Part shown: piece after piece, positions 1 to 56,967 of the stretch
Layout of the letters: each line of letters begins with the position of its first letter
How positions within the stretch are numbered: position 1 is the stretch's first letter
Virus record (IMG/VR): IMGVR_UViG_3300027974_001530
DNA: 64,000 nucleotides
Source of the DNA: a virus
Taxonomy: Duplodnaviria > Caudoviricetes
Strand: one strand, 5' to 3'
Notes under the pieces: model-generated
What the model saw: the letters and a program-made list of their open reading frames with translations, nothing else
Database searches by the model: none
What the model was told of the DNA's origin: nothing
Made by a program: the position numbers and the translations under genes

Positions 1-259
1 GAGTTCCTTTAGGTCCAAATATATCAACCCCAATATGTCCGTTTAAATGACCTCCCGCACCTGCGTGAGTTGCTTGTCTTGAATAGTCAGAATTGGCAGT
101 CCCCATAGGGTTATTCCAATCATCCCATTTTTGATCATAACCAATATTATATCTTCCCCCATCAATTGGGAATGCCTCTAAATCGGGTAAGGACTCATTT
201 AGATTATGGGTTTTTAAAATATATTTTTTTTCTTCTTCAGAAATTATTAATCTTTTCAT
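1..259 (-). CDS. M23-family metallopeptidase, 5' part only (runs off window edge), with N-terminal tag
   Basis: Not in ORF track. Manual translation MKRLIISEEEKKYILKTHNLNES...GGHLNGHIGVDIFGPKGT; HxxxD plus G.P.GT is typical of M23; TATTTAT at 272-278. Confidence 0.7.
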   Translation of the reverse strand, partial: MKRLIISEEEKKYILKTHNLNESLPDLEAFPIDGGRYNIGYDQKWDDWNNPMGTANSDYSRQATHAGAGGHLNGHIGVDIFGPKGT

Positions 260-280
260 TTGGCTTTTTATATAAATACT

Positions 281-760
281 TCAATCTACATAAAATATCA
301 TATTACCTATACCAACTTTTTTTGGTTCTTCAAAGGTGTGTTTAAGAAGGTCCATTACTTCGTCTTTTTTTGGGTGGTTCTCATGACAATTTATTCTAAA
401 CTCTTTTGGTAATTGACTATAAACTTTAAACATGTATTCTTCAATTTTACGATTAAATTTATATCCTAAACTATCATCTATATCATCAAAAAAATGTGCT
501 ACATAAGATAATCCCCATTTGTTCCAATCAAATATAACGTCTCTTAATTTTTCAATATCCATATCTTTAAATTTTTCAGAAAAAGGAATCCCAACATATT
601 TTGATAACTCCAAAAGGTTTATATGTAAATCAACATCAAAAGAATAAATCCAATGGTAAACATTTTCTCTTTGAGGTACTATCTTTTTTATAAATGGAAA
701 TTCCGTTGTTACAACAGAATTTAACACCTTAAAACCTTGTTCTTGTTTATTTGTTATCAT
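281..760 (-). CDS. hypothetical protein, similar to 6018..6428 (FPFIK motif)
   Basis: ORF track; TATTTAT at 767-773. Confidence 0.8.
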   Translation of the reverse strand: MITNKQEQGFKVLNSVVTTEFPFIKKIVPQRENVYHWIYSFDVDLHINLLELSKYVGIPFSEKFKDMDIEKLRDVIFDWNKWGLSYVAHFFDDIDDSLGYKFNRKIEEYMFKVYSQLPKEFRINCHENHPKKDEVMDLLKHTFEEPKKVGIGNMIFYVD

Positions 761-766
761 ATACTT

Positions 767-773
767 ATAAATA
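767..773 (-). promoter_or_regulatory. TATTTAT motif (putative phage late promoter), representative copy
   Basis: Same motif close upstream of about 30 gene starts; listed in findings. Confidence 0.5.
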
Positions 774-863
774 TACTAACTTTAAAATGAATGATTTTGT
801 AACGGTTCTTATAATAGGGTGGATTATTATAGGGATTTCTTTTTTTAACAATACTAAAGATAA

Positions 864-1562
864 TTAATCTAAAGTATCTGCGGTAACCTCAATATCTAAA
901 CCGACATTATCCCATTCTTCTCTATTCCAATTATGATCAACTATTAATGAATCATTGGTAATAACTATTTCCCCACTAGATCCTTCATTTATTTCCCAAC
1001 CAGAAAACTCTTCTAATTGACTGTAACAAATGTCTTCAATGTCTGAAGGTATATCAACACTCCTACCGTCTGATGTTATTCCATTTTGTTCTAAGGCTCC
1101 ACTATCTCCTGAACCATCATAAGATATTGTAACACTATCAGGATCCCCTAAATTAGATAAAAACTCACGACATTTAATTACAATGTTATCGTCCTCATCT
1201 TGTTCGTCAAATTCATATTCTGTAGATTCTTCTTCTTTTCCGTATGATTGTATGTCGGCATTTGAATAAACCAATAAACCTTTCTTTGGAAATATCTCTA
1301 CATGGAGGTCAAATCTTGATATATCATCATTATACCTATATACATCACTTTCAATTTCTTGAACCGTGTGATCTAGAATATCTTCTAAAAGACTATATAA
1401 CGCCTTTGGGGTCGCAATATACTTTGTCTCTCCAGATTTTTCACAACCCAATTCTTGCAATCCCCAATCATAACCGGAGTCATAAAATGTGTATGTTTGT
1501 GTAATTTTATCACAATCAAATTGTTTTAAAAACTCCATTAAATAAATAAACTTTCTTTTCAT
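864..1562 (-). CDS. DUF6878-like protein (YDGSGDSG...GWEINEGSSG)
   Basis: Motif shared with 39038..39724 and 41959..42642. Confidence 0.7.
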   Translation of the reverse strand: MKRKFIYLMEFLKQFDCDKITQTYTFYDSGYDWGLQELGCEKSGETKYIATPKALYSLLEDILDHTVQEIESDVYRYNDDISRFDLHVEIFPKKGLLVYSNADIQSYGKEEESTEYEFDEQDEDDNIVIKCREFLSNLGDPDSVTISYDGSGDSGALEQNGITSDGRSVDIPSDIEDICYSQLEEFSGWEINEGSSGEIVITNDSLIVDHNWNREEWDNVGLDIEVTADTLD

Positions 1563-1584
1563 ATCATTAAATATTATCTACACC

Positions 1585-1902
1585 TTACATGTAATCGTCG
1601 TTATCATACTCATCATTAACATCATAAAAATCATCAAAACAAGATTCTTCTTGTAATAAGTTTTCAAACACTTTTCTTATATGAGTATGAAAATTATTTC
1701 TAACCCACATATGTATAAGGTCATTATATCCTATACCACTTAATTGTAATAATTCTTTTTTATCTGAAACTTGCCAACAAATCTCGGTTAAAAATTCACT
1801 AAAGGTATAATCACAAACATCACCCTCAAGAACGTCAAATGACTCCTCAATTAGTTCTTTAATAATAGTATATCTTCTAATAAAAAGTATATTTTTATCC
1901 AT
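1585..1902 (-). CDS. small acidic 'RR-family' protein
   Basis: FIRRY and VCDYTF motifs shared with paralogs. Confidence 0.75.
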   Translation of the reverse strand: MDKNILFIRRYTIIKELIEESFDVLEGDVCDYTFSEFLTEICWQVSDKKELLQLSGIGYNDLIHMWVRNNFHTHIRKVFENLLQEESCFDDFYDVNDEYDNDDYM

Positions 1903-1908
1903 ACTTAA

Positions 1909-2977: not shown

Positions 2978-3289
2978 TTATATAAGATTTCTAAGATTAG
3001 TTTGATACCCAGGATTTTTTTGGATGTATCCAACGGAAAGTATTCCGTTTGAAGTTGGGATATTATATCCTGTAGACTTATTTAAAGTCGCTATAATATT
3101 AGCATCTTTAATGGCAGTTCCTGGTACCGTTAGATCAACATACCCGATATTCCCATCACCAAATTTTTGTGCTACATATGTTTTAGGTCCAATTTTCATT
3201 GGTTTACCTAATTGTGATGCACCTTCGTTTATTACTCTTCTTACAATTCTTGCAAGATCTGATTCTGTTAGTCTAACTATCCTTTTCAT
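2978..3289 (-). CDS. tagged hypothetical protein
   Basis: MKRIVRLTESDLARIVRRVINE tag. Confidence 0.85.
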   Translation of the reverse strand: MKRIVRLTESDLARIVRRVINEGASQLGKPMKIGPKTYVAQKFGDGNIGYVDLTVPGTAIKDANIIATLNKSTGYNIPTSNGILSVGYIQKNPGYQTNLRNLI

Positions 3290-3420: not shown

Positions 3421-3978
3421 ATGAAAAATTTAATATCTTTTGTTTTTACTTTTTTGATTGTTTTTGTTTCAAATTCACAAACATATGAGATGTATTCTGA
3501 CGTTTGGGAGTATGTAAGTAAAGATAGTAAGATGATTGTCCCAAAAGGTGGTGGTTCATTTTCATTCCCATCTGAAGAGATGATTGGAAAAATTGACACA
3601 AACAAAATTAATTCTTACATGTTGGAATCATTTAACAACTTTAGAAAATCTTATGGTAAATCTCCCGTAACTGAAGATAAGGATTTAACAAAAAAATCTA
3701 AATCATACGCTAAATGTTTGGTGTCTGAATTTAAACATGACCCTAATTTACCAAATAATAATTCTGAAAATATTGCCGAATTAAATTTCATGTTATTTAC
3801 AAAAATTGATCTAAATAAATACGATATAAATAAAGTTATTGCCGACTGTTGTTTTGATATATTTATTAGATCTAAAGGCCACATGGAGATGTTGTTAAGT
3901 GAAAGATCAAACAAATATGGTTTTGGTATCTACAAGTCAACTCATTCTATTATGATCTGTCTTAGATATAAAGCATAA
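3421..3978 (+). CDS. secreted CAP/SCP-like domain protein
   Basis: Signal peptide; FNNFRKSYG, ENIA, SKGH, YGFG motifs; own promoter and terminator. Confidence 0.75.
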   Translation: MKNLISFVFTFLIVFVSNSQTYEMYSDVWEYVSKDSKMIVPKGGGSFSFPSEEMIGKIDTNKINSYMLESFNNFRKSYGKSPVTEDKDLTKKSKSYAKCLVSEFKHDPNLPNNNSENIAELNFMLFTKIDLNKYDINKVIADCCFDIFIRSKGHMEMLLSERSNKYGFGIYKSTHSIMICLRYKA

Positions 3979-6017: not shown

Positions 6018-6428
6018 TTAAATTTCTTTGAGTTCAGATACATTAATACCGGCAGCTTCACTTGGCCATGTTGGGTGATCATCAGGGTAATTGTATCTTA
6101 CATTTTTAGGTAATCTATCGTATATTTTTCCTAAAAGATCTTCAAGGAGATCTTTATTCCATTCACCACTACGACTATATTCATCTCCACCATCACCAAC
6201 AAAAAGATAATTTTCCATTTCATCTTTATTTACAGTAATATTAATATAAATAATGTAATATTTACTTTGATCTCTATAATCATTAGAAGTCTTAAATTCA
6301 TTAAAAGACAAATTTTTAATAAAAGGATATTTTGACCTAACCATATCTTTAAATAAATTAAAACCAAAATCATATTTGGTTTTATTTTTTAAATCATTAA
6401 ATTGACCTTCTGTTATTATTATTTTCAT
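6018..6428 (-). CDS. tagged hypothetical protein
   Basis: MKIIITEGQ tag; YPFIK similarity to 281..760. Confidence 0.85.
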   Translation of the reverse strand: MKIIITEGQFNDLKNKTKYDFGFNLFKDMVRSKYPFIKNLSFNEFKTSNDYRDQSKYYIIYINITVNKDEMENYLFVGDGGDEYSRSGEWNKDLLEDLLGKIYDRLPKNVRYNYPDDHPTWPSEAAGINVSELKEI

Positions 6429-6433: not shown

Positions 6434-7291
6434 TTATCCAAATACCACTTCACCCATTACACAAAGTTGTAGGAATACATCGGCATCTCCGGCATCTCCT
6501 TCTTCTAACAGGATTCGTTCCCATATCTCAGGGTAATCTTTTTTTATAATAGGAATTGATTCCAATATTTTATCCATATCAATATAACCTAATTTTGTTT
6601 CTTCTAAATCACTATAATAACTTTTATCGTCTTTTAAATCACCAGTAATATCATAATCACCATCAATATAGTTACGTTTTACCTCCCTGTACTCCTCAAT
6701 ATCATAAACTTCAATATTACCACCTTGTAGGATATATTCACCAACGGCCTCTGATGTTGATTGTCCATAGGATCTTATATTTTTAGGTAAATCCATGTAA
6801 TACCAATAGTTTGATCCTCCTTCTAAGGCGGTAACAAATAAATCAATTAAATTATCCTTTGTTAAACTTTTTTTCAACGCCTCTTCTCGATATCTATTGT
6901 ATCTAAATGACCACCCAAGACCACCGGCACTATAGATATTCCAATCCCTTATTCTTTCTTTTGTTTTTTCAATATCGTGTTCAGAAAGATATTTTTTTAA
7001 ACGTTCAAGTTCTTTTTTTGCTGGTTCGACAATTTCTTTTTTTATGTGATCTAAAACATACTCATCTTTTATGTGTGAGGTGTCAAAATTTGAGTAATGT
7101 TCAACGTCTTTCTCCTTCTCTTTAATATTTTTTTTTAGATTTTCAAGATCTTCTAAAGCCTCTTTTTCTGCCAATTCCTCAACTTGACGCATTTCATCGG
7201 CAGTTAAACCATATTTATTAAGTTCTTCACTTTCATTTAAAAAATTACTTTTTAAAGTATTATATTGATCCTCACTTACTATTATTTTCAT
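6434..7291 (-). CDS. tagged hypothetical protein, coiled-coil N-half
   Basis: MKIIVSEDQ tag; ALEGGSNYW and DADVFLQLCVMGEVVFG segments. Confidence 0.85.
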   Translation of the reverse strand: MKIIVSEDQYNTLKSNFLNESEELNKYGLTADEMRQVEELAEKEALEDLENLKKNIKEKEKDVEHYSNFDTSHIKDEYVLDHIKKEIVEPAKKELERLKKYLSEHDIEKTKERIRDWNIYSAGGLGWSFRYNRYREEALKKSLTKDNLIDLFVTALEGGSNYWYYMDLPKNIRSYGQSTSEAVGEYILQGGNIEVYDIEEYREVKRNYIDGDYDITGDLKDDKSYYSDLEETKLGYIDMDKILESIPIIKKDYPEIWERILLEEGDAGDADVFLQLCVMGEVVFG

Positions 7292-7293: not shown

Positions 7294-7854
7294 TTAATCT
7301 TTTCTTAGTTCTTCAAAAACCTCATCACACCTTTCTGATAACATTTTTAGGTAATCATTTTCTAACCATCTTTTAATGTCATTAAAACTATTAAACTCTG
7401 TTGGAGCGTCCTCCATATGGTTAAAATCTCCATTTATATCTTCTTCTCTTAACTCTTGACCATCGTAATTCCAACTATAAAATTCAAAATCAATAGGAAT
7501 GTAACACTCACCATTCCAATAAGGGGTTGCCCACCCTGATAAAGATTCATTGGATTCTGAGTCTAATTTTTTACATGTAAACTCAAGAGACCCTGCCATA
7601 CGATCAAATCCAAAATCAAAGTTATGGTTGTTAAAAATTTTTGGTTCTGAGGTTAATATTTTTATTTGATCTCGTATCATATCATAAAGATCTTGACATG
7701 ATATTTCAGGCATATCCCCATTAAAAATTACCGATAATGCCCTTAAATTAAGATTATATCTTTTTAAAGTTTGGTAAACACCAACATCGTCAATTGAATC
7801 CTCTAAAGTTTTTTTTAGACCACCAAGTTGATTTTCGTTTAAGATAATTTTCAT
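7294..7854 (-). CDS. tagged hypothetical protein, paralog of 56365..56967
   Basis: MKIILNENQ tag; SCQDL/SCQEL and GWATP/GYAQP shared. Confidence 0.85.
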   Translation of the reverse strand: MKIILNENQLGGLKKTLEDSIDDVGVYQTLKRYNLNLRALSVIFNGDMPEISCQDLYDMIRDQIKILTSEPKIFNNHNFDFGFDRMAGSLEFTCKKLDSESNESLSGWATPYWNGECYIPIDFEFYSWNYDGQELREEDINGDFNHMEDAPTEFNSFNDIKRWLENDYLKMLSERCDEVFEELRKD

Positions 7855-9206: not shown

Positions 9207-9704
9207 ATGAAACCACTAATGACCTTTTTAATTCTATTTTTATCATTTTTAAATTTTTCACAAAATGTAATTGATGTTTCGATTTCTAAGATTGGAATAT
9301 TTTCTAAGTATGGGAAGGACTCTTTACATTTAATGATTAAGAAATCAGAGTGTGGAGAATACTCTAAAACATATACTCCAGTCAACTTGAAACTTGTGAT
9401 CAATAAATCTGAAAAAAGAATTTATAGATTTAAAAACAATTTACCTTTAGATACTTTGATGGTTAAAAAAATCTTTTTTAAAGATTCAATATACTCAATT
9501 ACTACACAAGAATTATGTGATCCAAATTACGCTGAATATGAAGGACAAATTATTGATTGTTTTTTAGTGTTAGACACAAGAAAAAATCAAACAAATAAAA
9601 ACACTCCGACTATGTGCTACTATTGGAATTGGAATTTTTCTTTAAATGATGTTCCTGTTGATTACTTTACAGGTCGGGTTAGTGATTATGTAACTATAAA
9701 ATAA
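9207..9704 (+). CDS. secreted protein
   Basis: Signal peptide; TACATTTG promoter at 9176-9183. Confidence 0.8.
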   Translation: MKPLMTFLILFLSFLNFSQNVIDVSISKIGIFSKYGKDSLHLMIKKSECGEYSKTYTPVNLKLVINKSEKRIYRFKNNLPLDTLMVKKIFFKDSIYSITTQELCDPNYAEYEGQIIDCFLVLDTRKNQTNKNTPTMCYYWNWNFSLNDVPVDYFTGRVSDYVTIK

Positions 9705-9725: not shown

Positions 9726-10388
9726 TTATGCAACGTCTTGAATCCCATTCCACGTTAAAGAATTTGGTAAGGCCGGAAATCCCATTCTACCTAATTCGGC
9801 ATTTATATCATTTCGTAATGAACCCATCCATCCGTCTAAATCTTTTAACGCCATAGAAAGACTTAATTCTACAGACGCTCTAGCACCACCTTTTGTTGTG
9901 TCCATTGATTGTTTTTTAAATTGTTCGGTAAATGACGGCATAGTTAAAATTTGAAACTTTCCACTTTTTAATTTCGCACATTTAACGGTAAAATAATCGG
10001 CCTGATGAGGTTTGTTGTTAGGATACCCTTTTGAATCTTGTTCATCGGCTAAAAAAAATGATAAATAATAACCAAATGGAGCACTTAATGCCATATTTGG
10101 GGACTCAACAGGTTTTACTAATGGTTGATTTTGTGCTTGTATCATTACCCCAACATATATAGGCGTTTTTTTGTCAACAAAAATCAATGAACCTTTTCCT
10201 GGATACGTTAAAGGATTTGACGCCGCAATTTCTTTTATAACTTGTTTTTTACCTTGGGGGTTATTTGATATTCCTTGTACTGCATTCCAATACTCTGAGT
10301 TTTGTTCATTAATTAAAGGAAGGACAATACCATGTTGTGATTCCATTAAGTTTAACATTCTATTTATATTTTCTTTTATTGTTTTCAT
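9726..10388 (-). CDS. tagged hypothetical protein
   Basis: MKTIKENINRMLNLMES...LINEQ tag. Confidence 0.85.
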   Translation of the reverse strand: MKTIKENINRMLNLMESQHGIVLPLINEQNSEYWNAVQGISNNPQGKKQVIKEIAASNPLTYPGKGSLIFVDKKTPIYVGVMIQAQNQPLVKPVESPNMALSAPFGYYLSFFLADEQDSKGYPNNKPHQADYFTVKCAKLKSGKFQILTMPSFTEQFKKQSMDTTKGGARASVELSLSMALKDLDGWMGSLRNDINAELGRMGFPALPNSLTWNGIQDVA

Positions 10389-10415: not shown

Positions 10416-10745
10416 TTAAAACCTTGACACCGAACACTTACGGGTAAAAAGATTTCTAATATAATTACCGTAGTTCTCCTCAACTATTTTATTTAACATA
10501 CTGATGTCCATTTCTGAACCACCCTTTTCGGAAGTATCGTGAAAGAAATTCCAATTCTGATTAACAAATTCCTCAATAGATCTGCCTACAAGATTATCAT
10601 AAAATGCATATGGGCTATTATTACGACACCACCATGCACCATCTTCATTTAATTCATACCCCTCAATCTGACCTTCAACAATTTCAATAAATTGTTGTAT
10701 TCGTCTAATAAGATAGTTTTGGTTTTCTGTTATAATGATTTTCAT
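10416..10745 (-). CDS. tagged RR-family protein
   Basis: MKIIITENQ; YLIRRI. Confidence 0.85.
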   Translation of the reverse strand: MKIIITENQNYLIRRIQQFIEIVEGQIEGYELNEDGAWWCRNNSPYAFYDNLVGRSIEEFVNQNWNFFHDTSEKGGSEMDISMLNKIVEENYGNYIRNLFTRKCSVSRF

Positions 10746-10758: not shown

Positions 10759-11109
10759 TTAATAATCCGATTCATCTTCATCATCGTCTTCATTACAATA
10801 ACGGTCCCGATATTCCCGTTGAATTAATCCACGGTACTTACCAATTATTAGTTTACGTATAAACTCATCAAGTTCTTTGTCTTCAACATACACATTACCA
10901 GAAAGTTCAGTATATGAATTAATAAATGTTGGTATAGACCCATTTACTACGTTAGTTTCATAACTATAATACGTATTGTATTCACAAGCATTAGTGTAAT
11001 CAAAACCCTCAATAACAATATCTTTTAATTGATCATTAATTTCAGGATAATGCAATCTCCTAAGTAGCCATTGAATTTTACTTTGAGACTCAGTTATGAT
11101 TATTCGCAT
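10759..11109 (-). CDS. tagged RR-family protein
   Basis: MRIIITESQ; WLLRRL; ACEY. Confidence 0.85.
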   Translation of the reverse strand: MRIIITESQSKIQWLLRRLHYPEINDQLKDIVIEGFDYTNACEYNTYYSYETNVVNGSIPTFINSYTELSGNVYVEDKELDEFIRKLIIGKYRGLIQREYRDRYCNEDDDEDESDY

Positions 11110-11405
11110 GATTCAAATGATTTGTGAAAAAATTTTTTTAGTTTGTCGTAATAACCATAATCCTCAAAAAATCTATACAGATCTTTATTGTGATACGAAT
11201 TTTTAATTCCAAGTGTTTGATTAATTTCCCATACAATTCCCAAAATAACGTCATCAGCAAAAAATAATGCGTCCTTTTCTGTGTTCGACCATATTCTACA
11301 AATGTCTTTAGGGTTTAATCTAGAAATAATTTCGTCAGCAATACTAAGTCTTCGAATAAATGAAAGAATTTGTTTATGTTGATCTTCGGTTATAATTATC
11401 CTCAT
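11100..11405 (-). CDS. tagged RR-family protein
   Basis: Start reassigned to MRIIITEDQ (11405); FIRRL. Confidence 0.85.
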   Translation of the reverse strand: MRIIITEDQHKQILSFIRRLSIADEIISRLNPKDICRIWSNTEKDALFFADDVILGIVWEINQTLGIKNSYHNKDLYRFFEDYGYYDKLKKFFHKSFESCE

Positions 11406-11470
11406 ATAGGATAAATACATTTAAAAATAAAAAATAATACCCTATAGTTGTTTGAACCAAAAAAATCCAT

Positions 11471-11478
11471 TACATTTG
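11471..11478 (+). promoter_or_regulatory. Bacteroidota sigma-A -7 element (TACATTTG)
   Basis: TTG-N20-TAnnTTTG upstream of 11501. Confidence 0.7.
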
Positions 11479-11500
11479 TAATAACCTTAAAAAAAATATT

Positions 11501-11968
11501 ATGAAAACTTTTATTATCTCTTTCTTGTTCTTTGTCTTCACTTCATTTATTGTAAAAGACGTAAATTTAAATGACAATGTTAATTATAAAACAGAACCAA
11601 ATGATTCTTTAATTAGTATTTCAGTTAGAAAAATTAATTACACAAGAAATATAGATTCGGTTGTTTATAACAAAGAAATTAGAGAAACAAATACAGAATA
11701 CTTTATTGATTTAAAAAATAACACCCTTAATGTAAATTTTTCTGATGGTTCTTCAGTTTTTATCGATTCAATTAAAGTTGTGAAAAATATTAATTCATAT
11801 GAAGTCTATTTTTTTGATAATGATTTGATGGGTAACGTACCATCAATCTACACAAAAATAAAAATCGACCCTGTATTAAACAAGGTCGACTATATTGAAA
11901 GAAATTTAGAGTACAATAACGACTATAATCGATATGAATTCTTAGATTTTAAAATGGATATTAAATAA
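11501..11968 (+). CDS. secreted or membrane-anchored protein
   Basis: Hydrophobic N-terminus; TACATTTG at 11471-11478. Confidence 0.8.
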   Translation: MKTFIISFLFFVFTSFIVKDVNLNDNVNYKTEPNDSLISISVRKINYTRNIDSVVYNKEIRETNTEYFIDLKNNTLNVNFSDGSSVFIDSIKVVKNINSYEVYFFDNDLMGNVPSIYTKIKIDPVLNKVDYIERNLEYNNDYNRYEFLDFKMDIK

Positions 11969-12478
11969 TTATCTTGGACTTGCGGACCCTCTGAATACTT
12001 TTTCAAGTTGAGCGTTAATACCACCGATATCTTGAGCTTTTTGTCGTTCATCTGCACCTAATTTAAAAGTTGCATTTGCTTGTGATGGGTTAACACCATA
12101 ATTTCCTTGTCTAACGGCATATAATTGATAGGCTAACGTTTTATCGTCTAATCCCATACCAGGTGTTGCCATATCAAACATTGAAGTATATGTGTGGTTA
12201 TCAAACCAAGGTCCGTCAAGTTTATATGTTAATATAACGTCTGGTATCTTACCTTTTTTCATCATATCGTAATAAGGTTTTCTGTTTGTAACACAACCCA
12301 AATTTTGTCCTGTTGCAGACTTTGTGTCTTTACATCCAGGAACAGTACCACCCATGTTATTGCTCGCCTTGGACATGCTCATGGATTCGTCACCAGGACC
12401 ACCCATTTCTTCTTCTCTAATTACTCGTCTTACGATTCTTGCAAGATCGGACTCAGTTAATCTGATTATTTTTTTCAT
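11969..12478 (-). CDS. tagged hypothetical protein
   Basis: MKKIIRLTESDLARIVRRVIREE tag. Confidence 0.85.
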   Translation of the reverse strand: MKKIIRLTESDLARIVRRVIREEEMGGPGDESMSMSKASNNMGGTVPGCKDTKSATGQNLGCVTNRKPYYDMMKKGKIPDVILTYKLDGPWFDNHTYTSMFDMATPGMGLDDKTLAYQLYAVRQGNYGVNPSQANATFKLGADERQKAQDIGGINAQLEKVFRGSASPR

Positions 12479-12696
12479 AATTATTTTTCTTTATTTATAA
12501 ATATATGTTATCTTAAAAAAATCATTTTTTTCATAATTAATTTATTAAGGATTCCTTTTTTCTGAGAGACCCATTAAGTAAACGACTTAAATAATTTAAA
12601 AATACCCGAAGGGGTCGGACGGTCAAAAAATTCCGACGAAGTCGGGTTCGGTTTCCGGACCCAATCAAAAAGGAAGAAAATTAAGATTTATTATAG

Positions 12697-13155
12697 TTAC
12701 CGATTAGACTCCCAAATTTCTTTTAAGTATTCATAAAAATTACTACGAATATACTGGATTATCTGATTTCTAAATATAACCTTTTCATCCCCACTTAAAT
12801 TAAGTTCGTTTGCCATTTGGCTACCAACATAATCAGATATATGTAATCTAAAATGTTCAAAAGGAGTAAATTTAAGTTCTTCATTATCAAAATTATTACG
12901 AACTATCCAATCCAATTTTTCTTTCATCATAGATTCTCTTCTACGCAAATGAAAGTTATTTTCTTTTAATATTCTAAATCTTAATAATGGTTTACCGTTA
13001 ATTGTAATATCACCCTTATCATTTTTTCCAATTGTTTTAACAACAACCTTTTTGTTTTTAAACTTACCCCCCATTATAGTGTCGCCAACTTTAATGTCAA
13101 GTTTAATCATCTCAGATAATAATCCGTATTGGTCCTCTGTAATTATTATTTTCAT
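12697..13155 (-). CDS. tagged two-module protein (small beta-barrel-like module plus RR module)
   Basis: Start reassigned to MKIIITEDQ (13155); IKVGDTIMGGKFKNKK; ILKEN junction then HLRRR. Confidence 0.8.
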   Translation of the reverse strand: MKIIITEDQYGLLSEMIKLDIKVGDTIMGGKFKNKKVVVKTIGKNDKGDITINGKPLLRFRILKENNFHLRRRESMMKEKLDWIVRNNFDNEELKFTPFEHFRLHISDYVGSQMANELNLSGDEKVIFRNQIIQYIRSNFYEYLKEIWESNR

Positions 13156-13460
13156 AATCCACCTTCCCCACATCCCTTTTTATGAATTTTATCAAAGTAT
13201 GATTTTATTTTACGAAAAAATATTTCTCTAATACTATTTTCCATCATGTATGAAAAATCATCAATCATGTCCATTGCCTTTTCCCATTCTAAATTAAGAT
13301 CAATATCAACAACTTCACGTATAACTGCAGTTGAAACATCATCAAAGTAATCATTAAATCCACCAATGTAGGTATAATCACACGGGGGATAATACATCAT
13401 CTTTTCATTAACAATTTCGTTAATGCGATCATACCTTCTTATTATAAAACTGTTATTCAT
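13152..13460 (-). CDS. RR-family protein
   Basis: FIIRRY, PPCDY; start 13460 preferred over 13487. Confidence 0.75.
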   Translation of the reverse strand: MNNSFIIRRYDRINEIVNEKMMYYPPCDYTYIGGFNDYFDDVSTAVIREVVDIDLNLEWEKAMDMIDDFSYMMENSIREIFFRKIKSYFDKIHKKGCGEGGL

Positions 13461-13467: not shown

Positions 13468-13791
13468 TTAATTATAGTAATTTTCAAAATACTTTTTTAT
13501 AGTGTCATCATACCTTGAGTCCAAAAATCGTTTAATTGGTATAGAGAACTGTTCCCAAGTTTCATCCCCCCAACATATTTCAATACCATATTCTAAATCA
13601 AGTTTGTCATAGGTAAAATTACATACGGATTCAACAAAACTTTCAATCGAAGACCTAACACCAACCAACACTTCCATAGCTTTAATAACAATCTTATCAA
13701 GTGCATCAATATCCAACCTTCGTTTAATACAGTTAGATAATTGATAATAATCCAATGATTGTTTTTGACTTTCAGTTATAATGATTTTCAT
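13468..13791 (-). CDS. tagged RR-family protein
   Basis: Start reassigned to MKIIITESQ (13791); TATTTAT 13798-13804. Confidence 0.85.
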   Translation of the reverse strand: MKIIITESQKQSLDYYQLSNCIKRRLDIDALDKIVIKAMEVLVGVRSSIESFVESVCNFTYDKLDLEYGIEICWGDETWEQFSIPIKRFLDSRYDDTIKKYFENYYN

Positions 13792-18388: not shown

Positions 18389-18392
18389 TATT

Positions 18393-18777: not shown

Positions 18778-18781
18778 TACC

Positions 18782-41402: not shown

Positions 41403-41932
41403 TTAAGAAATTTCAATTTATAGATTGTTGAGTTAATTAACTCCTGTACCGTATCAATTTGATTTTGAATATAACTATCTTCAATAGATTCTCTATTTTC
41501 ATCAATTATATCTAATAATTTTTCAAAATAAGAGATTGTTTTTTTACAGTTTTTATATTGTTCAATTTTAAATGTTTTGAAGTTTTTAATAATTCCGTAT
41601 TTACCTTGGTAAGATTCTATAATCCCATCAAATAAATCAACAACACCATCATAGTAATTGTTTAATGCATTGTGTTCAGCAAATGATTGTGTTTGAAGGT
41701 GAAATACGTGTGCTTGGTTTCTTGAATGTAAGATATTACAAACCATTTCACAAAAATCTTCATTACCGTCATCTTCTTGGTCATCCTCACCATCCTCCTC
41801 ATCATCATCGTCTTCTTCTTGATCGTTATCATCATCGTCTTGATCATCCTCGTCCTCATCTTCTTCGAACAATCTACGTTTTTTTAATTCTTCAAATAAT
41901 TTATTGGTTAGATCTTTTTCATTAATTTTCAT
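41399..41932 (-). CDS. ferritin/Dps-like protein (DUF5856-like) with poly-acidic linker
   Basis: HSRNQAHVFHLQT.SFAEHNAL..YYD...D...ESYQG. Confidence 0.75.
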   Translation of the reverse strand: MKINEKDLTNKLFEELKKRRLFEEDEDEDDQDDDDNDQEEDDDDEEDGEDDQEDDGNEDFCEMVCNILHSRNQAHVFHLQTQSFAEHNALNNYYDGVVDLFDGIIESYQGKYGIIKNFKTFKIEQYKNCKKTISYFEKLLDIIDENRESIEDSYIQNQIDTVQELINSTIYKLKFLK

Positions 41933-46318: not shown

Positions 46319-47596
46319 TTAATTTGATAACGGTGCTTTAATTGGTGGGTGTGATTGATAGTTACCTAATTGAATGTCATCTTCTAATAAACATTTACAA
46401 AAATTATCATCTTTAAATGATTCAAATACCTTAACGGCATCTATAGATCCTACACCGCACTCACCTGATTCAGTTGGCCAGAACTCAGTGTTGATGTTTA
46501 GGATTGGTAGTGTATATGGTTCTCTTGTTCGGGTTGGTACATTCCATTGATCAATTTCAGAATGTGATAATGTGCTACTGTCTCCACCATTATAGATTTG
46601 ATTAAACATTTCTTGAGTAACCATTTCTCTTCTTTCATCTAAATCTAATTTTTGACCAATTTGTTCTTTCGTTTGTTCAATATGATTCAAATACAAATGT
46701 GTATCACCCAAGTTGCCAATCAATTCATCAGGAATCATATTAACTGCCTTAGCAATTATTTCCAATAACAGGCCGTAAGATGCAATGTTGAATGGTAGAC
46801 CTAAGAATGTATCTACTGAACGTTGATTCCACATTAGGGAGATTGCTCTGGTTGGTATTGTATCTTTGTATTTTTCATAGTCCATACCACCATCCCCATA
46901 TTTTTCAATATACAAATCGACTCTTTCATCTAAACTCAACTCTCTTGTATAAACTTGAAATCCATAATGACAAGGTGGAAGCATCATTTGATCCAATTCT
47001 CCAACATTCCAAGCATTAACCATTAAACGTCTTGAGTCTGGGTTTGTTTTAAGGTCGTTGATTAGGTTCGCAATTTGGTCATTCTTAGGGACTTCTTTAT
47101 AATGGGTTACAGAACCATGATTCCAACCAGAAGGGACTTTTTTATAACCACCCCAATTTCTCCATTGCTTACCATAAATTGGACCTAACTCACCCCACTT
47201 CTTAGCAAACTCATCATCTGTTTTGATTTCGTTGATGAATTCTTCCTGAGTCATCTTTCTCACTTCAATGTTACTACCTTCATATTGAAATGTTTTTTCA
47301 ACCTCAGGGTAAATTTTACAATAGTTCTTATAAGCATCACCATCCCAAATATGACAATTGTTATCAACAAGGAATTTAATGTTTGTATCACCACGTAGGA
47401 ACCATAGTAATTCAGTCACCATAGTTTTCCAAGCCATCTTCTTGGTTGTGAGTAATGGAAACCCATCACTCATTTTATGACGGATCTGTCTACCAAAAAC
47501 ACTAATTGTGCCGGTCTTTGTACGATCCATTTTACGGGTACCATTATCTAAAATGTCCTGTAATAAATCTGTGTATTGCCTATCTAAATTATTCAT
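46319..47596 (-). CDS. thyA: thymidylate synthase with several insertions
   Basis: DRTKTGT, FPLLTTKK, ELLWFLRG, GPIYGKQWR, MLPPCH, QRSVDTFLGLPFNIASY, DTHLY. Confidence 0.97.
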   Translation of the reverse strand: MNNLDRQYTDLLQDILDNGTRKMDRTKTGTISVFGRQIRHKMSDGFPLLTTKKMAWKTMVTELLWFLRGDTNIKFLVDNNCHIWDGDAYKNYCKIYPEVEKTFQYEGSNIEVRKMTQEEFINEIKTDDEFAKKWGELGPIYGKQWRNWGGYKKVPSGWNHGSVTHYKEVPKNDQIANLINDLKTNPDSRRLMVNAWNVGELDQMMLPPCHYGFQVYTRELSLDERVDLYIEKYGDGGMDYEKYKDTIPTRAISLMWNQRSVDTFLGLPFNIASYGLLLEIIAKAVNMIPDELIGNLGDTHLYLNHIEQTKEQIGQKLDLDERREMVTQEMFNQIYNGGDSSTLSHSEIDQWNVPTRTREPYTLPILNINTEFWPTESGECGVGSIDAVKVFESFKDDNFCKCLLEDDIQLGNYQSHPPIKAPLSN

Positions 47597-48740: not shown

Positions 48741-49943
48741 TTATTTATTTTTTAAATCAAATTTTATTTCTTCTGTCAGTACATTTGTTTTTGACCCCAT
48801 AACTTCTTCCGACATTTCATATTTAACATCGTCAGAATAATCTTTTAGTAATTCTTCAGATGTTAATGTACCGTACTTACCTTCAAAACCATTAACATCA
48901 ATCTTTACATTAATATTTTTATACATTCTTTCCCAATATTGTGTTCCATTCAATGAGATTGAAATTTCATTAATAATCTTATATGGGTCCGCATTTGATC
49001 CTGGTCTTCTATCTTCCAAATAACCTTTCCAATTATCTGCGGTTGTTTTTGGGACTCTGATTGATGATCCTCTATCCGATACACCCCAACTAAATTTATC
49101 AATTGATTGTGTCTCAAAATTTCCGGTTAATCTTAAATTATTATCGGAACCATATGATTCAATATGTTCTTTATGTCTATTTTCAAATGATGTGAATATT
49201 GATTTGAAGTATTCTTCCTTGCCATCATTTCTCATTTTGTCGTTTGAAAAGTTAGTATGTAAACCAGATCCGTTCCATTCTCCGTATTTAAGTGGTTTTG
49301 GATGTAGATTAACCCCATAATTATATTTTTCGGAAATTTTATATAAAAAGTACCTGGTCATCCACAAATCATCACCCGCCTTTAATTTACCTTTTGAAAA
49401 TACTTGGTATTCCCATTGACCTAATGCAACCTCAGCGTTGATCCCTGTAATATCAATTCCGTATTTTAAACACATATCCATATGTTCTTCAACAAAATCT
49501 CTTCCTGCAACATATTCACCTACACCACAATAATATTTACCTTGTGGTTCCAAGTTGTTTTCATCGTGACCTAAAATACATTTATTTTTTATATCCTGTA
49601 TAAAATATTCTTGTTCAAACCCAAACCATAAATCTTCTTGTTCTTCAATTAGTTTTGATCTTGTATTAGTTTTGTGTGGAGTACCATCAGAATTCATTAC
49701 TTCACACAACACGTAAATTGTGTTTGTATGATTGTAAAAATAATGTCTAACAGGTATTAAAATACAATCAGAACTACCTGTCTGAGCTTGTTTTGTTGAT
49801 GACCCATCAAAGTTCCATTTTGGAAAATTACCTAAAACCAAACAATTTCTAATTTCTTCGTATTCAACAATTTTAATTTTACTTCTCAAATTTGGTTCTG
49901 GTGTATACCCATCTAACCAAACATATTCTAATTTACACTTCAT
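48741..49943 (-). CDS. glnII: glutamine synthetase type II
   Basis: EYVWLDG, WNFDGSST, WFGFEQEY, GINAEV..GQWEYQV, WNGSGLHTNFS, RLTG..ET, DRGSSIR, YLEDRRP. Confidence 0.95.
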   Translation of the reverse strand: MKCKLEYVWLDGYTPEPNLRSKIKIVEYEEIRNCLVLGNFPKWNFDGSSTKQAQTGSSDCILIPVRHYFYNHTNTIYVLCEVMNSDGTPHKTNTRSKLIEEQEDLWFGFEQEYFIQDIKNKCILGHDENNLEPQGKYYCGVGEYVAGRDFVEEHMDMCLKYGIDITGINAEVALGQWEYQVFSKGKLKAGDDLWMTRYFLYKISEKYNYGVNLHPKPLKYGEWNGSGLHTNFSNDKMRNDGKEEYFKSIFTSFENRHKEHIESYGSDNNLRLTGNFETQSIDKFSWGVSDRGSSIRVPKTTADNWKGYLEDRRPGSNADPYKIINEISISLNGTQYWERMYKNINVKIDVNGFEGKYGTLTSEELLKDYSDDVKYEMSEEVMGSKTNVLTEEIKFDLKNK

Positions 49944-50163: not shown

Positions 50164-51429
50164 TTAAAAATATTTTTTAGATTGTTTTTGTCTGTGGAAT
50201 TTAATGGCAAATCTGTGTACTTCTTCTTGTATTTTACCAAAAAGTGTAAAGTTCTTATAATCCTTTATGTTAAATTCCGTACCGTCTATCTTATGAATAA
50301 CTGAAGACTTATGGTTAGAGTCCTTAGATATTGAAATTAAATCTATCTTATCAGTTAAATTAAGTTTTTCAAACACTCTTTTTGCAACACCTAATTGTCC
50401 TTTACCCCCATCAATTAAAATAAGATCAGGTAGTTTTTGTTTTTCATCAATAAGTCTTTTTAGTCTTCTTTGTAAGATCTCATCAAAAGATGCGTAGTCA
50501 TCAATACCAACAAAACTTTTAATATTGTATTTACGATACTCAGATTTTAATGGAACACCATCATCAAACCTAACCGAAGCCGCAACATTAGAATCTCCTT
50601 GGTTATGTGAATTATCAAAAGCCTCAATAACCTGCGGTATATTTTTCAGATTTAAAATATCCTTTATTTCAAAGATATTTTTTTTGCGTTTCTGAATTCT
50701 TATTACCTCTAACTTATTATCAATTGTTTCCAATACTGTAAGTTTCGATAATATAGTCTGAGCTTTTTCATATTCCGTATTATTTGAATAATGTTTCATT
50801 AATTTTTTTATCTTTGACTTTAATCCATCCAAATCAAGAGAAAGAACTTTTTTAACGTCACGAACTATTTCATTATAGTAAAACTTTTTAATACCATTTA
50901 CGCAAGGGGCATTACATCTACCAAGATGAAATTCTAAACAATTTTTAAATTTTTCTTTTAGAATATTTTCTTCTGTAAGATCGTAAGAACAACTACGAAG
51001 TTCAAAGATATCATGAATAAGATCATATACTTCACGACACAACATTCCTGAAGTAAAATCAAGACTTACTCTATCGTCTTGTTTATCTCTTACTATTTCA
51101 AGTTTAGGAAATTCTTCGTCCGTAAAACATAAGGACCATTTTCTAGTCTTATCATCTTTACCCTTGATATTAAACTTTGGTTTGTATAGTTTAATTAATT
51201 CTTCTTCAAGGATTATTGCCTCTTGTTCTGATGAGGTAATTTTAAACTCAACATCGTGAATGTTCTCAACGAGGGTTTTTGTTTTACCAGTTTGATTTTT
51301 TTGGAAATAAGAGGAGACTCTTTTTGGTAAGAACTTTGACATACCAACATAAATTATTTGCCCTTTGTTGTTTTTAAACAAATAGCAACCTGAATTTTTT
51401 GGTATGTCCTTAAGTCTTTCTAAAATCAT
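50164..51429 (-). CDS. uvrC: excinuclease UvrC-like (GIY-YIG + UVR + RNase H-like), no C-terminal HhH domain
   Basis: GCYLF...IYVGMSK, IEAFDNSH, DDYAS, PDLILIDGGKGQL, EVHRFA; start reassigned to 51429. Confidence 0.9.
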   Translation of the reverse strand: MILERLKDIPKNSGCYLFKNNKGQIIYVGMSKFLPKRVSSYFQKNQTGKTKTLVENIHDVEFKITSSEQEAIILEEELIKLYKPKFNIKGKDDKTRKWSLCFTDEEFPKLEIVRDKQDDRVSLDFTSGMLCREVYDLIHDIFELRSCSYDLTEENILKEKFKNCLEFHLGRCNAPCVNGIKKFYYNEIVRDVKKVLSLDLDGLKSKIKKLMKHYSNNTEYEKAQTILSKLTVLETIDNKLEVIRIQKRKKNIFEIKDILNLKNIPQVIEAFDNSHNQGDSNVAASVRFDDGVPLKSEYRKYNIKSFVGIDDYASFDEILQRRLKRLIDEKQKLPDLILIDGGKGQLGVAKRVFEKLNLTDKIDLISISKDSNHKSSVIHKIDGTEFNIKDYKNFTLFGKIQEEVHRFAIKFHRQKQSKKYF

Positions 51430-51433
51430 ATCA

Positions 51434-51441
51434 CAAAGATA
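51434..51441 (-). promoter_or_regulatory. sigma-A -7 element for uvrC, leaderless type
   Basis: TATCTTTG-N4-ATG. Confidence 0.65.
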
Positions 51442-51450
51442 CAATTTTTT

Positions 51451-53265: not shown

Positions 53266-53496
53266 TTATTTAAATCTATTATCTTTTAAAACATAAGGTG
53301 GATTAATTCTTACCTCAGATCCGTCACTATTAAAGTAATATGCGGTATCACCATCAAAACTAATTGTATCTGTATACCAAATAGCCGGATGAGGACCTTT
53401 ATTGGTAATAACACTACCTTTTATTTTATACCTATAATCGTTTCTTCCACAGGAAACTACGAGTAATACTATAAGAACACTAATTAACTTTTTCAT
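53266..53496 (-). CDS. small lipoprotein
   Basis: MKKLISVLIVLLVVSC. Confidence 0.8.
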   Translation of the reverse strand: MKKLISVLIVLLVVSCGRNDYRYKIKGSVITNKGPHPAIWYTDTISFDGDTAYYFNSDGSEVRINPPYVLKDNRFK

Positions 53497-55023: not shown

Positions 55024-55204
55024 TTAAAAAATTTTATAGTTCCCAAATACTTTTTTTTTATTAGGGAATTTATAATAAAACCATAACATTACTTTTAATA
55101 TCTGTCTTATATTTTTCATTTAAAAAATTTTATAGTTCCCAAATACTTTTTTTTTATTAGGGAATTTATAATAAAACCATAACATTACTTTTAATATCTG
55201 TCTT
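55007..55204. repeat. perfect 96-bp tandem duplication
   Basis: Sequence from 55007 repeats exactly at 55103; flanked by AATAT(T/C)TGTCTT microhomology. Confidence 0.95.
55024..55119 (-). CDS. 31-aa chimeric peptide created by the duplication
   Basis: MKNIRQILKVMLWFYYKFPNKKKVFGNYKIF; stop abuts next ATG. Confidence 0.35.
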   Translation of the reverse strand: MKNIRQILKVMLWFYYKFPNKKKVFGNYKIF

Positions 55205-55209
55205 TTCAC
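55120..55209 (-). CDS. 29-aa peptide (GTG start)
   Basis: MKRQILKVMLWFYYKFPNKKKVFGNYKIF; GTGA overlap with upstream stop. Confidence 0.4.
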   Translation of the reverse strand: MKRQILKVMLWFYYKFPNKKKVFGNYKIF

Positions 55210-55556
55210 TTCCAAAGTAGTTGTATTATTAATATCATAAATGATAAAAATAAACAAACGTATGTTTTTGTTGTTAGAGGTTCACTAAATACCGCCCAAC
55301 TTAACCACGTAAATACCATTGCCCCTATACTAAAACCTATTAATCTGGAGGGCCACATTTCACCACCAAACGCAGAAATCATATTTTTTACTGAAAACAT
55401 AAATAACATAGATATTGGTATACCTGTTAATACTGTCAACCAATAGTGATCTTTAATCCAATCAAATTTTAGTTGTCCTTGTAGTTGAAAAAATGTTAGT
55501 ATCTGAGCCAAACCCCCAAAAACAATACCGATTAAAAGATTATTTATATTTACCAT
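55206..55556 (-). CDS. four-helix membrane protein (DMT/SMR-like size)
   Basis: Four hydrophobic segments. Confidence 0.75.
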   Translation of the reverse strand: MVNINNLLIGIVFGGLAQILTFFQLQGQLKFDWIKDHYWLTVLTGIPISMLFMFSVKNMISAFGGEMWPSRLIGFSIGAMVFTWLSWAVFSEPLTTKTYVCLFLSFMILIIQLLWK

Positions 55557-55744
55557 ATTTTAATTACCTCAATTATTCTTTTAAAAAAAGTTTTTAATTT
55601 ATTATTTTTTTTTATTTCTTTTTTTGAAAATCTTCCATGATTACCCATACTATCGTAATCAGCACAATCCATATACGCCATTGGTGACGGCATATCGCTA
55701 TATTCGCACCACAAATCTTCTTTATTTATTTTTTTATTTTTCAT
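55550..55744 (-). CDS. hypothetical protein
   Basis: LWCEYSDMPSP motif. Confidence 0.65.
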   Translation of the reverse strand: MKNKKINKEDLWCEYSDMPSPMAYMDCADYDSMGNHGRFSKKEIKKNNKLKTFFKRIIEVIKIW

Positions 55745-56319
55745 CCTAAGTAGTTTAAAATCTTTTCTTTAACTCCTGATTGTTTAATACCTTCATTTGA
55801 TTTTGGTGTTAATACAAAATTATCAATTGCCCATTCATCCTTCCAAGGCTCCCCAATCTTACCCATATTTAAATCATCTATAGAAACCCAGTGAGTTATT
55901 TCAGGGTGATCGTGAAGATATTGTTTAATTTCAATAGTTCGTAATTGTTCTGACTCCCATCGTGGTGACCACATAAATAAATTACCATGAACCGTACAAT
56001 GTTGTATGTTAGGTGTCAAAGCAATTGGTCGTTTGATAATACCCTGACTTTCGTAGTAATCTCCAAGTTCTTCAAGAGTTGCGTGTAATTTCCAATCTGA
56101 ACTTACAACAATTTCAGCTCCCGTTTCTTCAAGTATCTCATTAAGTACCTTAATAGCCTTTGTGTCAAAATCATCAAAACGATATTCAACAGGTGAGTCT
56201 TTTTTTTCTTTACTACCATCAGGGTTTTCACTACGGTATTTTGCCCATTTCTTAGTTCGTCCACCCCAATTGTTGGAGAGACATATAACTCCGTCGTTGT
56301 CTAAAAATATAACCTTCAT
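55741..56319 (-). CDS. HAD phosphatase, Swiss-Army-Knife RNA-repair-like type
   Basis: IFLDNDGV, VVSSDW, WVSIDD. Confidence 0.8.
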   Translation of the reverse strand: MKVIFLDNDGVICLSNNWGGRTKKWAKYRSENPDGSKEKKDSPVEYRFDDFDTKAIKVLNEILEETGAEIVVSSDWKLHATLEELGDYYESQGIIKRPIALTPNIQHCTVHGNLFMWSPRWESEQLRTIEIKQYLHDHPEITHWVSIDDLNMGKIGEPWKDEWAIDNFVLTPKSNEGIKQSGVKEKILNYLG

Positions 56320-56324
56320 AGATA

Positions 56325-56332
56325 CAAATATA
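56325..56332 (-). promoter_or_regulatory. sigma-A -7 element
   Basis: TATATTTG-N5-ATG. Confidence 0.6.
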
Positions 56333-56364
56333 ATAAAAAAATTTTGATTTTACAAATAAAATAA

Positions 56365-56967
56365 TTACGAATGTTTTTCGTTATAACTTTTTGCCTTTTT
56401 AAAATACTCCTTTGCGGACATTTTAACTATTTTTGGGTATTCGTTTAAATACCAAGATATTACCTGATCTAAAGTTTTAAACTCAATGTCACTCATATCG
56501 TATGTGAATTCAAGATGAAATTCATCTTCTTCAATATAATTATTATCAGGTTCTTTCCAATCACCTCTCGTATAGTATTCAAAACGAAAACTAATTATCA
56601 TTGACCGCCTACTTGAACATAAAAATGGTTGAGCGTATCCATAAGTAGTTTCTACAACCTCAGACCCATTAATAATTGATGTATTCCAATGAAATCCATT
56701 ACCATCATACTCTTCATTTGTTATTTCTATTTCATCAACTTTTAATATTTCTGGTATATCTTTAGTTTGAAAAATGTAATAAAACATTATCTCAGTTAGT
56801 TCTTGACAACTAAAGTTATTTCCATTTTTTGGTTTTAAAAAAATCTTAGCTGCAGATAAAGGTAATTTAAATCCCCTTAATGTTTCATAATAACCAACAT
56901 TATCTGACATTTTAATTAGTTGTTTTGATATATCATTTGCTTGTGATTCATTAAGAATATATTTCAT
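56365..56967 (-). CDS. tagged protein isolated in the early-gene region; paralog of 7294..7854
   Basis: MKYILNESQ; TATTTAT 56972-56978; terminator upstream. Confidence 0.85.
   Translation of the reverse strand: MKYILNESQANDISKQLIKMSDNVGYYETLRGFKLPLSAAKIFLKPKNGNNFSCQELTEIMFYYIFQTKDIPEILKVDEIEITNEEYDGNGFHWNTSIINGSEVVETTYGYAQPFLCSSRRSMIISFRFEYYTRGDWKEPDNNYIEEDEFHLEFTYDMSDIEFKTLDQVISWYLNEYPKIVKMSAKEYFKKAKSYNEKHS

Follow-up and report, generated by a model that had tools for sequence, protein, structure and literature searches.

The 64 kb of IMG/VR record IMGVR_UViG_3300027974_001530 analysed here (the window, by which we mean the whole stretch) contain about 38 genes whose products carry one of five or six classes of short leader peptide ending in (I/L)-x-Glu. 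We put at roughly 60% the probability that these leaders are capsid-targeting sequences, or propeptides, of the type known from bacteriophage T4, expanded to five or six interchangeable classes on about a tenth of the genes. The phage head probably takes up the tagged proteins as cargo, on a scale far beyond that seen in T4. The leaders have distinct motifs, are conserved at the peptide level, stand at protein N-termini or at junctions between modules, and are exchanged as modules. Relatives of the phage encode a T4-type head module with its protease, and (I/L)-x-E is kept at the maturation site of their major capsid proteins (MCPs). The initial annotation of this DNA had read such tags as a capsid-loading system for injected cargo. 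The computational checks that it named were all favourable, whereas loading by docking, cleavage, presence in the virion and delivery by ejection are steps that we infer, as is any anti-defence role.

Leader classes and their conservation

Type A leaders, M[KR]II[ILV][TSN]ExQ, are carried by 15 genes, including 17783–18061; throughout the class the Gln is followed by [YF]-x-x-[LI], for example in the genes starting at 10745, 11109 and 15852. Type B, MK[KR][IV][IV]RL[TN]ExDLxR[IL][IV]xR[VL][IV]xE, is present in four N-terminal copies and in one extra copy, internal or at an alternative start, at residue 164 of 14632–15372. Type C (MNLQExIxRI...) was found on seven genes together with two variants, C2 (MK[ND]L[IV]RxIL[KR]E) on four with one variant, and type D (..LMESTMGDVRPLIxEQ) on three. 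A further class (class E, MKRLIISEEEKKYILKTHNLNE) heads an M23 peptidase whose N-terminus is encoded by open reading frame (ORF) 2–259. When the residues of the 114 window proteins were shuffled 2000 times, the mean expectation did not exceed 0.006 per class, compared with 15, 4, 7, 5 and 3 observed. The tags stand where the initial annotation placed them and in the numbers it gave.

The leaders are 7–22 amino acids (aa) long, charged and amphipathic; for types B, C and C2 an amphipathic helix is predicted or is suggested by the residue pattern. They lack a Sec or lipoprotein signature (a hydrophobic core of at least 10 residues with a signal-peptidase or lipobox site); Bacteroidetes-type signal or lipoprotein N-termini occur on other, untagged genes of the window, for example 13861–14541 and 53266–53496.

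To define the position of the leaders, hidden Markov model (HMM) matches were collected from 1.68 Mb of related loci and counted as N-terminal when at, or no more than two residues from, the initiator Met. By this measure 151 of 155 matches are N-terminal (A, 84/84; B, 28/30; C, 20/22; C2, 19/19). The description of the tags as N-terminal in the initial annotation thus holds for nearly all matches, but the same peptides also recur at internal junctions between modules. The leaders follow the T4 (I/L)-x-E rule. The Glu is invariant in all 156 site instances (A, 64/64; B, 27/27 at each of two sites; C2, 19/19; C, within L-Q-E, 19/19), and the residue two before it (P3) is Ile or Leu in about 97% of unique instances. 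By comparison, position 11 of type B, which is acidic but lies outside such a tripeptide, is Asp in 21 cases and Glu in six. Within the tags, codons vary for Ile (ATA/ATT/ATC), Thr (ACA/ACT/ACC), Glu (GAA/GAG), Leu (TTA/CTA) and also Gln, and the 40 nt 5′ of the tagged genes are mutually unrelated. Selection therefore acts on the peptide and not on a DNA or RNA element. A full-text literature search with the leader strings found no paper, and nothing matched when window segments, or tag B by itself, were searched against 50,697 GenBank phage records at the nucleotide and protein levels.

A T4-type head module and gp21-type protease in relatives

The window has a G+C content of 29% and nearly all of its genes lie on the minus strand. 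Its RNA ligase matches 160 IMG/VR loci on contigs of up to 304 kb. Among the records searched, the nearest (76 kb) contains no head genes, and the relatives that do carry them have RNA ligases 79–87% identical to that of the window. In a complete relative of 304 kb (G002), 38 of the 392 genes are leader-bearing, and a head block in T4 order encodes TerL, the gp20 portal, an antisense 61-aa ORF, a protease of family S77 (formerly U9), an acidic scaffold-like protein and the gp23 MCP. A head block with a reverse-strand bS21 gene inside it characterises the freshwater Bacteroidetes huge phages that encode bS21, described in a study that makes no mention of leaders or propeptides (PMC9723584). The head-block architecture of G002 matches this description. 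The window belongs to the same clade and derives from an uncultured, T4-related freshwater jumbo phage. The antisense ORF (135003–135188, minus strand, locus L093) lies between the portal-side gene and the protease; it fits the phage bS21 gene in strand and position and is a candidate for it.

The S77 protease of G002 (135771–136499) scores 80 bits against a Pfam cut-off of 27. Tag B is present on more than 120 IMG/VR stretches, and S77 proteases above the cut-off were found in G002, in a second relative (G004) and in nine of the ten largest tag-B contigs (242–412 kb), giving 11 of 12 large leader-bearing contigs. The prohead protease of S21/U9 type anticipated in the initial annotation is thus present in relatives, and the tag-bearing G002 also has a scaffold-like gene in its T4-order head block. 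The His (ELNHP) and Ser (GxSSRGxGS) blocks of the protease are invariant in T4 and in 11 leader-bearing genomes, whose proteases likewise retain IL[IV]E at the N-terminus, similar to LIE-9 of T4.

The cleavage rule recurs in the head proteins themselves. In the MCPs of five genomes of the clade, LINE/A is invariant while flanking residues vary (a slash here marks the boundary after the Glu), and in a MAFFT alignment it stands opposite the FLTE/A maturation site of T4 gp23, upstream of a BLAST-aligned V..VRR block. The scaffold-like protein starts ..DVIAE/N, comparable to ..QLIAE/A in T4 gp22, and contains 12 [IL]xE sites against 6.3 expected (p=0.03). A complex prediction for the G002 protease and the first 40 residues of a B-tagged protein, run without controls, scored 0.00 and argues neither for nor against binding. 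A 432-aa G002 protein beside the MCP, which has a C2-like leader, was considered as a vertex protein and dropped; no gp24/gp23 paralogy was detectable. In the window, 41399–41932 encodes a 177-aa protein consisting mostly of Asp/Glu runs (..EEDEDEDDQDDDDNDQEEDDDDE..), which resembles both the prohead-core proteins gp67 and gp68 of T4 and the acidic scaffold-like protein of G002.

Leader exchange and mosaic junctions

Among 20 orthologues of 11969–12478, the leader is the part best conserved by column (0.92), followed by the body (0.73) and the length-variable linker (0.33). One of them has exchanged the B leader for the M23-type leader, and the boundary still reads ..VINE/E. The A-tagged 10759–11109 and the C-tagged 22011–22370 likewise have homologous bodies behind leaders of different class. 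Searches with tag B alone retrieved many metagenomic proteins of varied lengths, several of which have a second copy between two unrelated segments. Within the product of 2397–2975, ..RVIRESEDVLVDEIDTELDSVDENNPDP.. returns as ..YLLRESEDALVDEIDSALDSMDENSPDP.., so that the leader end and acidic linker have been duplicated inside one protein.

Recurrence at junctions is seen on a larger scale in the 776-aa product of 24199–26529. From its N-terminus this protein comprises a C leader, a module with a predicted ADP-ribosyltransferase (ART) fold, GLMES and EMWES junctions, a GNAT-like segment, an internal C leader (residues 403–414), an HD domain, another internal leader (residues 578–590) and a C-terminal module. 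More than 300 partial homologues, 70–96% identical, have differing architectures, and the boundaries of their BLAST segments cluster at the leader copies (residues 1–13, 403–414 and 578–590) and at GLMES and EMWES. The ART-fold module recurs in 84 contexts. At least five junction types precede it, namely C leaders at the N-terminus; C leaders at internal positions; ..EELNE/N; ..IYLRE/SKEN; and ..GS-INE/N and ..EF[IL]NE. In 78 of the 84, [ILVM]-x-E ends no more than three residues before the module starts, where chance would give about 10%. The module has no Pfam match. Its AlphaFold2 (AF2) model (predicted local distance difference test score, pLDDT, 73) has Tpt1/KptA as its best Foldseek match (probability 1.0, E 4e-4, TM 0.43–0.46), followed by ART toxins and PARPs at E > 0.1; the model suggests an ADP-ribosyltransferase-superfamily fold.

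Proteins that carry the leaders

Pairs of tagged proteins mostly align over the leader alone. The initial annotation called the tagged proteins otherwise unrelated; by BLASTP this is so for most bodies, but the statement is too strong, since several pairs are paralogous and a jackhmmer search with a tag-stripped query united eight window and 13 G002 proteins in one helical family of about 95 aa. Members of this hhRRRh family start with h-h-[RK]-R-R-h, including two invariant Arg residues, and occur behind A, B, C or C2 leaders or without a leader; the 40 unique members from all loci comprise 15 with A, six with C, one with B and 18 with none. In the predicted structure of 10759–11109 (pLDDT 85), the helices form a small, compact bundle and the MRIIITE leader lies outside it; a Foldseek search of the PDB found no relative of the family (best E 1.3). 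With about 20 paralogues of 10759–11109, this family is the commonest candidate cargo. The leader-bearing genes of the window, and one leaderless control, are as follows.

2–259, minus strand: M23 peptidase, N-terminal 86 aa, class E leader MKRLIISEEEKKYILKTHNLNE/S; gene extends past the window edge
1909–2286, minus: hhRRRh family, C2-variant leader MSTIIEKIVRSVLNKE
2397–2975, minus: B leader; second ..LLRE/SED.. repeat unit in the body
2978–3289, minus: B leader
6018–6428, minus: A leader, MKIIITEGQ
6434–7291, minus: A leader; phrog_2355 match in the C-terminal part
7294–7854, minus: A leader; paralogue of 56365–56967
9726–10388, minus: D leader, ..LMESQHGIVLPLINE/Q
10416–10745, minus: A leader, hhRRRh family
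10759–11109, minus: A leader, hhRRRh family; fold predicted (see above)
11100–11405, minus: A leader
11969–12478, minus: B leader; 20 orthologues aligned; RNA-library contigs in three studies
12697–13155, minus: A leader
13152–13460, minus: hhRRRh family without leader (control: the domain exists untagged)
13468–13791, minus: A leader, hhRRRh family
14632–15372, minus: complete B leader at residue 164, an internal junction or an alternative start at 14883
15478–15852, minus: A leader, GTG start, hhRRRh family
15858–16250, minus: B leader
16256–16984, minus: D leader
16995–17435, minus: D leader, then a Thr/Gly-rich linker
17783–18061, minus: A leader, hhRRRh family; the 15th A gene
20099–20452, minus: C leader, MKLQEHIRRILIE
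20449–20820, minus: C leader, hhRRRh family
20820–21596, minus: C leader; FMN-reductase-like body (lead only)
21599–22009, minus: C leader
22011–22370, minus: C leader, hhRRRh family; body homologous to A-tagged 10759–11109 (leader swap)
24199–26529, minus: 776-aa mosaic protein, C leader
28776–29225, minus: C2 leader, MFDNQKILKILRE
31020–32228, minus: C leader
32249–32641, minus: C/C2-variant leader, MKENIRHILKE
32646–33143, minus: C2 leader
34499–34972, minus: C2 leader, MKNLIVKILRE
34969–35691, minus: A leader, hydrophobic helix and GDSL/SGNH-like body (weak lead)
35905–38349, minus: 814-aa protein, C-like leader MSKLLTEISRIRELMG..VLNE/S
38342–38536, minus: A leader, small Cys-rich protein
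38533–39033, minus: A leader
40152–40718, plus: C2 leader; the sole tagged gene on the plus strand
41034–41402, minus: A-variant leader, MKIIINENE
56365–56967, minus: A leader, MKYILNESQ; isolated within the nucleotide-metabolism half

In a Pfam scan of 35 tagged proteins the HD domain alone passed. M23 is supported by a precomputed Pfam match on the full-length product of ORF 2–259, and 20820–21596 (FMN-reductase-like, Atlas 0.92–0.96) and 34969–35691 (GDSL/SGNH-like, Atlas 0.82) are leads only. The earlier view that the bodies include enzymes is therefore upheld for HD, M23 and, tentatively, the ART-superfamily fold, but Pfam backs few of the assignments originally listed. Just past the window start, positions 12336–13037 and 11304–12041 of locus L244 encode adjoining cell-wall hydrolases, NlpC/P60 and M23, both with leaders of a rarer class (..SE.EK..IL..H..) that end in [IL]-x-E; they are candidates for virion-borne, peptidoglycan-degrading cargo.

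Recognisable genes lie mainly in the 41–64 kb half of the window. Tags are absent from thymidylate synthase (ThyA), RNA ligase, the UvrC-like GIY-YIG nuclease, the glutamine-synthetase-like protein, two calcineurin-type phosphoesterases and a GT2 glycosyltransferase, in agreement with the initial annotation, for which equally common tags on early or replication proteins would have spoken against cargo. Beside the tagged block, the thymidylate synthase (46319–47596, 425 aa) has a long insertion that splits its Pfam match over 310 residues; the glutamine-synthetase-like protein (48741–49943) has 400 aa, and the UvrC-like nuclease (50164–51444) combines GIY-YIG and RNase H domains. Three plus-strand genes with classical signal peptides (3421–3978, 9207–9704 and 11501–11968) are scattered between tagged genes of the minus strand; in a JGI contig with identical genes, a weak precomputed CAP-domain match is recorded for the first of them.

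Upstream motifs and transcript traces

Among upstream words in G002, TATTTAT is the most strongly enriched; it stands 20–30 nt ahead of the genes for the protease, the scaffold and the tail. In this genome it precedes 20 of the 38 tagged genes compared with 85 of the 354 untagged genes (Fisher p=4e-4), which would fit late expression of the tagged set. Three lake metatranscriptomes contained short contigs only (7–8% of sampled words), which cover parts of several tagged genes; such contigs carry no information on level, strand or timing, and DNA carry-over may have contributed.

An ORF-poor gap of 2 kb at 17600–20100 has a higher GC content of about 34%, and in one lake RNA library contig depth is greatest here (18106–18630 and 18860–19101). 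These RNA pieces come from relatives, because they contain many differences and indels. No tRNA was found in the gap, nor any Rfam match even at E 0.1, and it may represent a degraded gene or a non-coding RNA with structure. Scans of the whole window for tRNAs and Rfam families gave no match.

Discussion

In the mechanism that we envisage, the tagged proteins would be made mainly late, and the short amphipathic leader would dock each cargo onto the scaffold core of the assembling prohead. The gp21-type (S77) protease would then cut after the Glu of each (I/L)-x-E at the leader end, and the same enzyme would cut mosaic proteins at internal leader copies or at LME, INE and LNE junctions. Separate modules would thereby be freed inside the head, among them the ART-fold module, the HD domain, M23, other enzymes and many small helical proteins, and would exit together with the DNA when the next cell is infected. 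Paralogues that lack a tag would act from inside the infected cell; T4 offers a parallel in that ModA and ModB are unpackaged and Alt is packaged. On this reading module shuffling is more plausibly a by-product of having autonomous modules that can be cut out than the function itself, and a tie to anti-restriction is speculation.

Several points weigh against capsid targeting. The case for packaging and cleavage is drawn wholly from the T4 analogy, and the protease and head genes were seen in relatives with RNA ligases 79–87% identical, not in the window's own genome. One tag-bearing contig that is 93% complete has no S77 match, and the contigs examined may represent one clade, in which case the co-occurrence of leaders and protease would not be an independent association. 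The Gln two residues past the Glu (P2′) is invariant in all 64 unique type A leaders, which a simple cut-and-discard propeptide does not explain. [ILVM]-x-E is frequent by chance, at about 2–3% of positions, and HMM-based logos are biased toward the seed residues. Inside the window the enrichment of TATTTAT is weak (13/32 tagged vs 19/82 untagged, p=0.07), about half of the tagged genes lack it, and nearly half of the hhRRRh family (18/40) is leaderless.

The best-placed competing explanation, which we nevertheless consider unlikely, is that the leaders are uncleaved helices or strands that dock with a shared partner distinct from the prohead core (for example a phage chaperone, a host hub protein, or a compartment for replication or at a membrane), the (I/L)-x-E pattern reflecting merely an amphipathic helix with a capping Glu. 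The amphipathic-helical character of B, C and C2, the invariant Gln beyond the putative type A cut, the optional use of leaders on the hhRRRh family and the absence of the late-type motif from about half of the tagged genes would all be consistent with such a role. A capping residue is harder to reconcile with a Glu that is never Asp at the 156 site instances, although another acidic column mixes Asp and Glu. Moreover, the tripeptide rule extends to non-helical junctions (..GS-INE/N, ..IYLRE/S and ..EELNE/N) before one and the same module and holds at the MCP position homologous to the proven T4 cut, and the leaders look like proven T4 propeptides.

We give still less credence to the idea that the leaders are remnants of common descent that serve as recombination handles, with a few fast-evolving paralogue families supplying the tagged genes, microhomology promoting their shuffling and no targeting involved. 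Paralogy among tagged bodies is real, one family covering at least eight window genes; extreme mosaicism, with breakpoints at leaders, marks the 776-aa protein and over 300 homologues, and orthologues swap leaders. Yet synonymous sites vary freely and flanking DNA is unrelated, which argues for selection on the peptide, and most bodies have no detectable similarity, whereas one body family occurs with four leader classes. Among orthologues, too, the leader is better conserved than the body (0.92 vs 0.73).

That the leaders are N-terminal degrons or translation-initiation optimisers, setting the amount or lifetime of accessory proteins through an AT-rich MKII.. start or through recognition by a host AAA+ protease or translational repressor, seems highly improbable: type A codons are indeed very AT-rich directly after the start, Bacteroidetes lack Shine-Dalgarno-led initiation and this phage clade encodes its own bS21 (PMC9723584), but complete leader copies lie internally, far from any start, synonymous codon variation speaks against a conserved RNA element, B, C and D are not low-complexity, and the Rfam scan of the window revealed no RNA family or structure signal.

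If capsid targeting is the correct interpretation, a more elaborate version of it can be put forward tentatively. The clade may possess a combinatorial delivery platform in which leader classes serve as address codes for copy number, head position or ejection order, internal copies allow many effectors to be released from one gene, and the virion brings tens of pre-made enzymes and small helical proteins into the host. The tagged set would then amount to a catalogue of first-minute host-takeover and counter-defence factors.

The principle of the T4 capsid-targeting sequence (CTS) is itself already known. What is new here is the scale (about 10% of genes), the number of exchangeable leader classes, the use of leaders as internal junctions of mosaic multi-module proteins and the presence of leaders in an abundant clade not yet in culture. 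Should they function as they do in T4, the motif alone would reveal the injected proteome of widespread uncultured lake phages. This would comprise dozens of injected proteins per genome, nearly all functionless by annotation and including ART-fold, HD, M23 and NlpC/P60-type enzymes, and would give direct access to how phages of Bacteroidetes take over the host early and counter its defences. It would also mean that the head protease can mature mosaic 'polyvalent' phage proteins as polyproteins, offer varied natural packaging tags for putting foreign proteins into capsids, and explain the free shuffling of genes by the autonomy of each module once cut out.

Comparison with known systems

The closest parallel is T4 itself, whose propeptides of 7–20 residues direct proteins to the prohead core and are removed by gp21 (PMC9026906, PMC3012670, PMC5694885). 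Mullaney and Black (1996) described its capsid-targeting sequences (reviews: PMC9026906, PMC3012670). Residues 4 and 7 are important in targeting and residues 8 and 10 in processing, which Asp at position 10 blocks (PMC9026906). The propeptides in the T4 record are those of gp23 (..GSFLTE/AEIGG), gp24 (MAKINELLRE/S), Alt (MELITE/L), gp67 (MEGLIE/A), gp22 (MLKEQLIAE/A), IPI (..STITE/A) and IPII and IPIII (MKTYQEFIAE/A). The leaders described here are similarly short, N-terminal, Met-Lys-led and end in (I/L)-x-Glu on proteins with unrelated mature parts; MELITE of Alt resembles the A leader MKIIITE, and MAKINELLRE of gp24 resembles C2 MKNLIRNILKE. The S77 protease family, T4-type head module and conserved MCP maturation site, seen in relatives of the window phage, add to the likeness, as does a putative ART-fold cargo behind a leader, since the Alt protein of T4, itself a packaged ART, has a short leader that is cleaved off (PMC9026906). 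The T4 literature has in fact already proposed the CTS as a general T4-like route for loading varied proteins (PMC9026906). The differences are that T4 has about four cargo proteins and one main CTS, compared with five or six classes on about 38 genes in 64 kb; that leaders here also form internal junctions of mosaic multi-module proteins; that type A has an invariant Gln at P2′; and that the T4 system was demonstrated experimentally, whereas the present leaders are known from sequence alone.

The internal proteins of T-even phages form a diverse set in which the CTS is the sole common part (PMC9026906, PMC3012670, PMC5694885). The genes described here are likewise fast-exchanging, lineage-specific candidates for cargo that retain the leader alone. 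T-even genomes, however, have one or two such loci, whereas tens of genes over about 100 kb are involved here and leader classes exchange on the same body family.

Among phiKZ-like jumbo phages, phiKZ, 201phi2-1 and SPN3US have a gp21-related protease and about 50 head proteins, including paralogous cargo families with conserved N-termini such as SPN3US gp53 and gp54 (PMC5694885, PMC7411985). Their cleavage motif is (S/A/G)-x-E and their propeptides mostly exceed 100 aa (PMC5694885), in contrast to (I/L)-x-E and 7–22 aa here. The leaders of the window thus fall outside the phiKZ-like pattern of processing in both motif and length.

The polyvalent proteins of phages and conjugative elements, reportedly treated by Iyer et al. 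in 2017, are said to be multi-domain effectors for which delivery with the DNA and processing were proposed. The 776-aa protein and its homologues are similar in chaining ART-fold, GNAT-like, HD and other modules in shuffled order. They differ in that the 776-aa protein has no embedded processing peptidase domain, and in that its modules are parted by a repeated leader or junction peptide that fits the rule of the prohead protease.

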